A stretch of DNA of 14,862 nucleotides from IMG/VR virus record IMGVR_UViG_2778261344_000012; one strand, written 5' to 3'. The position numbers and the translations under genes were made by a program. The stretch comes from a virus (lineage: Duplodnaviria; Heunggongvirae; Uroviricota; Caudoviricetes). Below the pieces are notes generated by a model. The model ran no database searches, was not told the DNA's origin, and was given only the letters and a program-made list of their open reading frames with translations. Below are positions 6,337 through 7,622 of the stretch, in pieces. Each line of letters opens with the position of its first letter. Within the stretch, counting starts at the first letter, position 1.

Positions 6337-6671
6337 ACAGTTTAACAACACACTACCGTCGCTCGCAACTGATTGCGCTTCCTGTACCGGGTGGAAAAGC
6401 GAAGGTGGAGTATTGCTATGCAGTTAATGTACCAGGTGGCAGGGTAATTGTAACCCACAGCTTTGCAGAGTGGGCTGTGGGTGATTTTAACCGGCAGAAG
6501 GAGACAGTCCTTTGCGACAAGTTAACCGCTGGTTCAAAGATCACTACGGAGTACCCGTCAGAGTCATTCGTTGGGAGCCGGAAACACAACGAGTTATCTA
6601 CCTCCGCGAAGGCTATGAGCATGAGTGCTTCAGCCCGCTCGAACAGTTTCGTCGTAAATTCAGGGAAATAG
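6333..6671 (+). CDS. Hypothetical protein; 3' half possibly out of frame (see findings)
   Basis: ATG at 6333 with GGAGAAA RBS; the N-terminal about 55 aa look protein-like, but the C-terminal half is Ser-rich and low-complexity while an alternative frame (6512..6691) encodes a more natural sequence. Confidence 0.4.
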
Positions 6672-6680
6672 AGGTCGGTC

Positions 6681-7622
6681 ATGAGCACTAAATTAACCGG
6701 CTATGTATGGGATGGTTGCGCTGCATCAGGCATGAAATTATCCAGCGTGGCAATTATGGCCCGCCTGGCTGATTTCAGTAATGACGAAGGTGTGTGCTGG
6801 CCATCAATTGAAACTATTGCCCGTCAGATTGGCGCGGGGATGAGTACCGTCAGGACGGCTATCGCACGGCTGGAAGCAGAAGGCTGGTTAACGCGTAAGG
6901 CGCGTCGCCAGGGTAACCGCAATGCGTCGAATGTTTATCAGCTTAACGTTGCGAAGCTTCAGGCAGCGGCATTTTCTCAACTGTCAGATTCTGACCCGTC
7001 AAAATCTGACGCATCAAAATCTGACCCGTCAAAATTTGATGCGTCGAAATCTGGCAAAAAAGCGGGTTTTCACCCGTCAGAATCTGGCGGGGATCCGTCA
7101 GTAAAATCAAAACATGATCCGTCAGATAAAAAACCTTCTCGTCCGGACGCTTCGCAACCGGACACGCAGACGGATGAACAGGATTTTTTAACTCGCCATC
7201 CTGATGCGGTTGTATTCAGCCCTAAAAAGCGCCAGTGGGGAACGCAGGATGATTTGACCTGCGCACAGTGGCTCTGGAAAAAAATCATCGCCCTGTACGA
7301 GCAAGCCGCCGAATGTGACGGCGAGGTGGTTCGTCCCAAAGAACCGAACTGGACAGCCTGGGCAAACGAAATTCGCCTGATGTGTGTGCAGGATGGTCGT
7401 ACTCACAAACAAATCTGCGAGATGTACAGCCGCGTCAGCCGCGATCCGTTCTGGTGCCGTAACGTGCTCAGCCCGTCGAAGTTGCGGGAAAAATGGGATG
7501 AGCTTTCCCTGCGCTTATCACCGTCCGTCAGCACGTACACCGAAAAACGCGAAGACCCGTACTTCAAATCCAGTTACGACAACGTGGACTACAGCCAGAT
7601 CCCGGCAGGATTCAGGGGGTGA
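6681..7622 (+). CDS. Replication initiator, lambda O-like (N-terminal HTH, internal iteron-encoded linker), 313 aa
   Basis: N-terminal helix-turn-helix (WPSIETIARQIGAGMSTVRTAIARLEAEGWL); central repetitive SDSDPSKSDASKSDPSKFDASKSGKK segment encoded by tandem 15-bp DNA repeats; gene order after cro/cII. Confidence 0.7.
   Translation: MSTKLTGYVWDGCAASGMKLSSVAIMARLADFSNDEGVCWPSIETIARQIGAGMSTVRTAIARLEAEGWLTRKARRQGNRNASNVYQLNVAKLQAAAFSQLSDSDPSKSDASKSDPSKFDASKSGKKAGFHPSESGGDPSVKSKHDPSDKKPSRPDASQPDTQTDEQDFLTRHPDAVVFSPKKRQWGTQDDLTCAQWLWKKIIALYEQAAECDGEVVRPKEPNWTAWANEIRLMCVQDGRTHKQICEMYSRVSRDPFWCRNVLSPSKLREKWDELSLRLSPSVSTYTEKREDPYFKSSYDNVDYSQIPAGFRG
6984..7133. repeat. Putative origin of replication: iterons inside the O-like gene
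   Basis: Five tandem 15-bp units of the form TCAAAATCTGAC-NNN (6984..7058), then three spaced CCGTCAGA/TAAAA-type copies (7073..7133), followed by A/T-rich tracts. This is a lambda-ori-like architecture. Confidence 0.6.

Follow-up and report, generated by a model that had tools for sequence, protein, structure and literature searches.

We analysed a 14,862-nucleotide stretch of viral DNA (Duplodnaviria; Heunggongvirae; Uroviricota; Caudoviricetes; IMG/VR record IMGVR_UViG_2778261344_000012), hereafter the window, and in particular its positions 6333-6691, which belong to the early-right operon of an e14/CPS-53-like lambdoid prophage. An ATG-initiated open reading frame (ORF) of 112 amino acids, present in the ORF list at 6333..6671 and corresponding to ymfM, is overlapped there by a second frame, offset by +2/-1. 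This second frame opens after a TAA at 6488-6490, has the TTG at 6512 as its first and only start candidate and ends with a TAA at 6689-6691, thus encoding 59 amino acids. A GAAGGAG motif (6497-6503) lies 8 nt 5' of the TTG. These elements had been pointed out in a sequence-only reading of the window; the TTG ORF and its motif were reproduced from the DNA and the ORF list, and both peptides quoted in that reading matched exactly. In what follows, the frame of 6333 (ymfM) is called frame A and that of 6512 is called frame B. The region most probably consists of two genes sharing DNA in different frames, ymfM and a nested, stand-alone gene of the DUF4222 family, a reading to which we assign a probability of about 0.8.

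Organization and annotation of the ymfM locus

The features of the locus are as follows.

5785..6336, plus strand: ymfL, encoding a CII-like (Phage_CP76) regulator (Pfam PF06892, E = 1.5e-13; NCBIfam NF041471 YmfL, E = 9e-50; Prokaryotic Genome Annotation Pipeline, PGAP).
6333..6671, plus strand: ymfM, frame A, 112 amino acids (106/112 identical to K-12 b1148; PHROG 1170, E = 1e-67).
6333..6509, plus strand: YmfM N-terminal domain (N-domain), about 55-59 amino acids, MNSLT..QL..P.PG..Y..G..NH..VG (tblastn, alignment, ratio of nonsynonymous to synonymous substitution rates, dN/dS).
6497..6503, plus strand: putative Shine-Dalgarno (SD) sequence GAAGGAG of the DUF4222 gene (sequence; purine-rich SD-like motifs 5' of the homologous start in relatives).
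6510..6671, plus strand: YmfM tail, Ser/Thr-rich and predicted disordered, in the +1 frame of the DUF4222 gene (dN/dS, stop avoidance, AlphaFold2).
6512..6691, plus strand: DUF4222-family gene, frame B, TTG start, 59 amino acids (Pfam PF13973; PHROG 1343; PGAP WP_001250269.1).
6669..6671, plus strand: ymfM TAG stop, within the SD region of the next gene and followed by AGG TCG GTC and the in-frame ATG at 6681.
6681..7622, plus strand: O-like replication initiator gene (HTH_36), frame A (Pfam PF13730; PGAP).

The gene order is repressor, cro-like, ymfL, ymfM with the DUF4222 gene, O-like, PerC-like and methylase. The ymfL TGA stop overlaps the ymfM ATG (ATGA at 6333-6336) and the final 11 nt of the DUF4222 gene overlap the replication gene, whose homologue is named 'DNA replication protein O' or 'primosomal protein' in phage records. 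The sequence of the window recurs with 100% identity in E. coli 2013C-4187, and the locus is carried by about half of complete E. coli genomes (2647/5426). Elsewhere in the window, PGAP calls a TerB-family gene with an internal stop (about 13414-13776, plus strand) and a frameshifted hypothetical gene (about 3451-3762, minus strand).

Current annotations give mutually exclusive gene models. PGAP places a coding sequence (CDS) exactly at 6512..6691, 'DUF4222 domain-containing protein' (WP_001250269.1), with nothing in the 6333 frame, and the genomes that it annotates, K-12 derivatives included, have the DUF4222 CDS only. The curated MG1655 record has b1148 ymfM, 'cell division inhibitor YmfM' (L053, NC_000913.3 1203822-1204160), and no DUF4222 CDS. 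Phage records call one, the other or neither. The sequence-only reading had suggested an unannotated small protein with a non-ATG start; the protein and its start held up, as a DUF4222 product with its own SD sequence, but 'unannotated' was not correct given the PGAP entry, even though MG1655 indeed lacks it. An alternative-frame ORF of this size is unremarkable and proves nothing alone, since the window contains 68 ORFs of at least 60 amino acids. It is the Pfam match of the DUF4222 ORF, and its occurrence in 111 phage records with identities as low as 33%, that set it apart from chance.

The DUF4222 gene and the N-terminal domain of YmfM

The 59-amino-acid product matched Pfam DUF4222 (PF13973) with 67.3 bits (E = 8.6e-19; gathering cut-off 27 bits), residues 2-53 aligning with model positions 3-52/53. 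It therefore scores above the cut-off over most of the 53-position model and, like the members of the family, is a short stand-alone phage protein. Homology searches with both frames, which the sequence-only reading had called for, were performed with tblastn; the 111 phage records were found with the DUF4222 frame, and 42 records with YmfM residues 1-59. Among the 120 listed of 139 database clusters, all were stand-alone or partial DUF4222 proteins of 43-102 amino acids; the listed relatives carried PF13973 only and measured 43-86 amino acids, except P0011 (102 amino acids), a singleton and the sole fusion among the clusters listed. In P0011, which comes from a metagenome contig of the ENA, a deletion has brought DUF4222 (from PVRVIRW onward) into frame with the YmfM N-domain, which is retained as far as ...NRQKE.

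A further 41 loci were gathered from Citrobacter, Enterobacter, Kosakonia, Kluyvera, Leclercia, Pantoea, Phytobacter and others, and about 45 diverged loci were compared overall. In the loci whose start regions were listed, the homologous start codon of the DUF4222 gene is ATG, GTG or TTG, with an SD-like motif, and in several lineages a stop in the DUF4222 frame lies at -3 or -6 before the ATG or GTG. Like the DUF4222/PHROG 1343 family, the window gene, of 59 amino acids, is stand-alone and located in the early region of temperate enterobacterial phages, 5' of replication or Rha/Ash genes; its product is identical to WP_001250269.1 and does not depart from the family in sequence, whereas nesting in another ORF is absent from the family description. 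Taken together, the family match, the conservation and the start region support the view that 6512..6691 is a separate, conserved small gene of the DUF4222 family with its own SD sequence and TTG start. As a family and as a PGAP annotation this gene was already known, while its dual coding with ymfM appears to be undescribed.

AlphaFold2 modelled the DUF4222 product confidently (pLDDT, the predicted local distance difference test score, 84) as a five-strand barrel plus a helix, resembling SH3/Tudor domains. Its fold matches were generic SH3/Tudor/DUF1653-like ones only, and are a lead, not a result; DUF1653 small beta-barrels (PDB 3be3) and Tudor-like RNA polymerase-binding domains (the C-terminal domain of UvrD/PcrA, CarD, and the RNA polymerase interaction domain of Mfd) were listed as near systems. 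Searches for a function from the sequence gave no NCBIfam match, no PADLOC match and no PDB sequence match (best E = 2.1).

DUF4222 is interrupted by a nonsense codon in two natural alleles whose ymfM frame is intact to its normal stop: one in Phytobacter sp. V91 (L047 1501-1680; Trp7>TGA) and one in Kosakonia quasisacchari (L028 71-253; Glu46>TAA). No reverse allele, with a nonsense codon in frame A and an intact DUF4222, was found among the collected loci.

In the window and in the K-12 type, GAAGGA of the SD sequence can pair with UCCUUU ending at the first two bases of the TTG, in a 6-bp hairpin with a 5-nt loop (window 6497-6514). Folding of window positions 6450-6570 gave a z-score of -2.8. 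The hairpin is not conserved in relatives using ATG starts, and RNA structure masking the DUF4222 start was rejected as a general mechanism, the consensus fold of 19 relatives showing none there.

YmfM of the window is orthologous to b1148, as indicated by its sequence, by its match to PHROG 1170 (E = 1e-67) and by the shared ymfL - ymfM - O-like order. The two proteins are identical at 106 of 112 positions and the embedded DUF4222 ORFs at 59 of 59, so that there are six changes in YmfM and none in DUF4222; all four differences in the tail are silent in DUF4222. In a profile search, frame A proteins made up 295 database clusters, almost always with a length of 108-114 amino acids; the 112-amino-acid YmfM matched no Pfam or NCBIfam family.

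The N-domain was found with 61-63% identity in Klebsiella phages, 67% in Citrobacter phiNP, 51% in Pantoea AH07, 43% in Providencia and 38% in Hafnia yong2; the matches at 38-43% identity in Hafnia and Providencia had E values of about 1e-6 where DNA similarity was gone. Although very diverged, the N-terminal regions of frame A align as one family across about 40 loci. In this region dN/dS was 0.50 in frame A, as compared to 0.89 and 1.14 in the other frames, both of which are closed in 37/37 sequences. The ATGA overlap of the ymfM start with the stop of the CII-like gene is conserved among relatives. In Hafnia phage yong2, the N-domain directly follows the CII gene as an annotated stand-alone CDS of 59 amino acids, with a distance of about 850 nt to the DUF4222 ORF, and in Citrobacter phiNP the two are about 740 nt apart; N-domain and DUF4222 thus behave as separable modules. 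Judged from alignments and substitution patterns, the first approximately 59 codons of ymfM are a separate conserved domain. The AlphaFold2 model of YmfM was poor overall (pLDDT 49, and about 40 for residues 68-112), too poor for a fold search.

A perfect 11-bp inverted repeat lies inside the N-domain (window 6453-6463 / 6472-6482; ACCCACAGCTT...GCTGTGGGT region). Relatives either keep pairable CCACAG/CTGTGG or have both arms switched to CTACCA/TGGTAG, and for each of four consensus pairs, both sides are changed in one sequence or more. The repeat might form an RNA hairpin or serve as a palindrome bound by a protein.

Selection in the overlap

A codon-level conservation check, also proposed in the sequence-only reading, was carried out on 17 representatives. 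In the overlap, dN/dS was 0.11 for the DUF4222 frame (with dS about 1.6), 1.5 for the ymfM tail frame and 2.2 for the third frame. Divergence at 4-fold degenerate sites, for the same locus pairs, was 0.52 in DUF4222 and 0.47-0.52 in the flanking ymfL-like and O-like genes; the two being equal, the ymfM tail sequence adds no detectable constraint. Amino-acid conservation was 64-88% for DUF4222, compared to about 47% for the tail, the latter from a hand comparison of the window with Klebsiella. Purifying selection is therefore strong on the DUF4222 frame, and no amino-acid constraint is detected on the ymfM tail. The pattern that would have spoken for the opposite view, conservation of the 6333 frame through to 6671 and none of the alternative frame, was not found. 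As for the earlier remark that the 6333 frame turns into Ser-rich, low-complexity sequence, it was borne out insofar as the tail is free of amino-acid constraint; it overlooked that stops are avoided there and that the N-terminal half is a conserved domain.

In every locus of the VIRWEP subgroup, frame A runs from an MNSLT-type start, overlapping the stop of the CII-like gene, across the DUF4222 start, and either ends at +157 to +165 or runs into an Ash/Rha ORF (SfV, ST64B, L048). It is open to +157 or beyond in all 43 unique genes of the subgroup (43/43), whereas the chance of this was 0.04-0.17 per gene under random synonymous recoding with local codon usage. Codon choice was examined at at-risk positions, i.e. 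Val or Leu codons preceding a codon that starts with A, where a codon ending in TA or TG would create TAA or TGA in frame A. The frequencies of codons ending in TA or TG were as follows.

At-risk DUF4222 positions: Val 0/105, Leu 0/24 (0/129 together).
Safe DUF4222 positions: Val 15/58, Leu 35/57.
Same context in 100 flanking phage ORFs: Val 53%, Leu 73%.

Val16, for instance, is GTC in 8/8 cases when Arg17 is AGR, while GTA or GTG occurs with a CGN codon for Arg17 or with His as the next residue. Parsimony on a neighbour-joining tree indicated at least 16 third-base changes at always-at-risk codons, all between C and T and none to a purine; in safe columns, third-base A and G are freely used. 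With a median 4-fold p of 0.57, divergence at synonymous sites comes close to saturation, and clustering gave 7 groups at p > 0.5 and 17 at p > 0.4, so that the codon choices are largely independent. A within-gene codon permutation null gave weak p-values (0.08-0.7), as expected for a gene whose codon pool is itself short of xTA/xTG, and was not used as the main test. A natural control is provided by distant DUF4222 genes located after rha (phiNP, Serratia, Erwinia), which have 4-7 frame A stops; in Elizabethkingia, too, frame A is closed. As far as codon usage can tell, the ymfM frame over DUF4222 is kept open by selection, its amino-acid sequence being free.

The 3' end of frame A is fixed as well. 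Exactly three codons separate the frame A stop (TAG or TAA) of e14-type loci from the O-like ATG, which is in the same frame, and this 9-nt spacing between stop and ATG is found in nearly every e14-type locus for which the downstream gene was found. In the window, the TAG at 6669-6671 overlaps the likely SD sequence of the O-like gene and lies 9 nt before the ATG at 6681, i.e. within the few nucleotides that separate an upstream stop from a downstream start in coupled chains. The position of the DUF4222 stop varies from +177 to +258, within the O-like gene.

Other arrangements of the two frames were noted in relatives. In L010 (SfV orf37), L009 (ST64B sb41), L057 (Stx2a phage) and L011 (Hafnia yong2 'Ash family protein'), a long annotated ORF contains, in its -1 frame, a DUF4222 ORF that has no annotation; in these four, the Phage_ASH domain of the long ORF begins a few residues past the DUF4222 stop. 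In Hafnia yong2, the DUF4222 TTG and the ATG of the Ash ORF are 4 nt apart and share one GGGGAGGG SD sequence. In Providencia phage PSTCR8lys (L054 1187-1354), the overlapping frame starts at an ATG of its own, 7 nt downstream of that of DUF4222, and its peptide would start with a hydrophobic, transmembrane-like stretch (MKMLIISIAFIWISGVFAFASYV...), unlike the hydrophilic e14-type tail.

Interpretation and alternative explanations

We propose that ymfM (6333..6671) consists of a conserved N-domain of about 59 amino acids followed by a tail of about 53, and that the DUF4222 gene, nested in the -1 frame of this tail, initiates independently at TTG 6512 from GAAGGAG to yield a predicted 59-amino-acid, SH3/Tudor-like small beta-barrel. 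Both proteins would be made after SOS cleavage of the LexA-like repressor. What is preserved in the tail would be the passage of ribosomes that start at the ymfM ATG, itself coupled to ymfL through the ATGA, and read through to the frame A stop. Such read-through might deliver ribosomes to the O-like start by termination-reinitiation, or it might provide a disordered C-terminal extension independent of sequence. We lean tentatively, at somewhat less than even odds, towards coupling; the fixed, in-frame 9-nt spacing suggests that ribosomes from ymfL/ymfM must arrive there to reinitiate on the O-like gene.

Several points weigh against this proposal. Translation of both frames is deduced from evolution only. 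The sequences compared are related, so that Fisher p-values overstate significance, the parsimony and cluster counts being the conservative versions. The SD/start hairpin, together with the weak TTG, could keep independent initiation of DUF4222 low. In SfV, ST64B and Stx-phage types, frame A continues into an Ash/Rha ORF, and in Hafnia, Providencia and Yersinia phages it is open over DUF4222 without an upstream ymfM N-domain joined to it. Finally, the Providencia DUF4222 gene is itself coupled to the next gene by an ATGA, so that frame A is not needed for coupling there.

We considered the possibility that both genes are real but that the YmfM tail is needed as a peptide, e.g. as a flexible, composition-constrained Ser/Thr-rich linker or as a degron, rather than as a path for ribosomes. 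The length of the frame A protein, kept at 108-114 amino acids in the 295 clusters, would fit with this, as would the tails of SfV and ST64B, which link the N-domain to a Phage_ASH domain starting just past the overlap, and the openness of frame A in the Providencia, Yersinia and Hafnia phages, where coupling does not need it. Yet the tail shows no detectable amino-acid constraint, its start is hydrophilic in e14-type loci and hydrophobic in Providencia, and the invariant 9-nt in-frame spacing to the O-like ATG would be left unexplained. We regard this explanation as less likely than not, and as only slightly less likely than coupling.

It is improbable that, as in the PGAP view, only DUF4222 is real, the 6333..6671 ORF being spurious and the 176 nt between ymfL and DUF4222 non-coding. 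PGAP omits ymfM in the annotated records examined, the tail is of low complexity, predicted disordered and has a dN/dS above 1, and neither Pfam nor NCBIfam has a model for YmfM. If frame A were untranslated, however, the avoidance of stops would be unexplained. The N-domain is conserved at the protein level (38-43%), with a dN/dS of 0.5 in frame A only and the other frames closed in all 37 sequences; the ymfL/ymfM ATGA overlap is also conserved.

Another possibility, mentioned in the sequence-only reading, was a single gene, either a frameshifted pseudogene or one using programmed -1 frameshifting, encoding N-domain and DUF4222 as one protein. The conserved halves do abut, with an offset of -1 in every locus having both, an SD-like GAAGGAG precedes the junction, and one database protein, P0011, is an in-frame fusion. 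Nevertheless, a scan for slippery heptamers and a search for in-frame fusions led us to reject frameshifting or recoding: the window has no frame A X_XXY_YYZ site in the 60 nt on either side of the junction, the sites seen in 4/20 representative loci are sporadic and not conserved, and the only fusion is the singleton with a deletion. No stimulatory RNA structure was found at or after the DUF4222 start in a consensus fold of 19 junction regions. Furthermore, the arrangement of the two frames is kept across genera, DUF4222 homologues are stand-alone with their own start, DUF4222 and N-domain each occur without the other adjacent, several lineages have a DUF4222-frame stop at -3 or -6 before the ATG or GTG, and frameshifting does not require frame A to be open for 53 further codons. 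This explanation is accordingly very improbable.

That only ymfM is real (the curated MG1655 view) and DUF4222 a chance ORF, its Pfam family being an artefact of automated calls, has next to no likelihood, despite the MG1655 annotation of ymfM alone, the filamentation caused by expression of the ymfM ORF (bioRxiv 10.1101/2020.11.19.390815) and the weak TTG start, given the dN/dS of 0.11 with saturated synonymous sites, the confident AlphaFold2 fold, the higher amino-acid conservation of DUF4222 than of the tail, and the presence of DUF4222 where frame A has 4-7 stops (Citrobacter phiNP, Serratia, Erwinia).

The reading of two genes sharing DNA has known counterparts. Small phage genes nested out of frame in longer ones include lambda Rz/Rz1, E within D and B within A of phiX174, and MS2 L. 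The present locus resembles them in that a longer gene encloses, in a shifted frame, a small one that has its own SD sequence and start, both being kept by selection. In Rz/Rz1 and phiX174, however, both products are constrained in sequence and functionally characterised, whereas here the outer gene shows only stop avoidance in the overlap, and the inner gene extends past the outer one into the next gene. Translational coupling by termination-reinitiation occurs in phage and operon gene chains, with which the locus shares a stop within the SD region, 9 nt before the next ATG, and an ATGA, at ymfL/ymfM; it differs from them in that the candidate ribosome-delivering ORF crosses an entire other gene in a different frame. 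The kind of arrangement is therefore known, while this instance appears to be undescribed.

These results bear on SfiC. Ansari et al. reported that cells expressing the ymfM ORF from pBAD24 formed filaments lacking Z rings, and they identified ymfM with sfiC (bioRxiv 10.1101/2020.11.19.390815); their text makes no mention of DUF4222 or of a second frame. Going by its coordinates, the pBAD24 insert would contain the SD sequence, TTG and codons 1-53 of the DUF4222 gene, and with them the complete Pfam domain. In the original library clone the DUF4222 ORF was present in full, and later deletions remove both frames. Since clones and deletions affect both frames, the attribution of the phenotype to the 112-amino-acid frame would be provisional. 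Among the papers searched, none joined ymfM with DUF4222 or with overlapping-frame terms. The ymfM/sfiC locus of e14 shares the neighbours of the window gene, with ymfL upstream and an O-like gene or oweE downstream, though the O-like gene of e14 is a chimeric pseudogene and that of the window prophage is intact; e14 ymfM/sfiC was published as one ORF, to which the present analysis adds the embedded frame. Either product could be responsible for the SfiC phenotype of ymfM clones. More speculatively, the SfiC activity may really, or in part, be that of DUF4222, the ymfM frame across it acting as a sequence-free 'ribosome track' that couples the replication initiator; we hold this combined proposal to be doubtful.

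Strict avoidance of stops with zero amino-acid constraint and a fixed end would make this locus a natural case in which selection acts on the passage of ribosomes through a region and not on what they produce, and methods for detecting overlapping genes that rely on a reduced synonymous rate would miss it. The MG1655 and automated RefSeq gene models exclude each other here, and the evolutionary evidence indicates that each misses a gene. The identity of SfiC, an SOS-inducible inhibitor of division, had been in question for 35 years, and ymfM was put forward as the solution; since the constructs and deletions used affect both frames, the DUF4222 protein becomes a candidate inhibitor of the FtsZ pathway.

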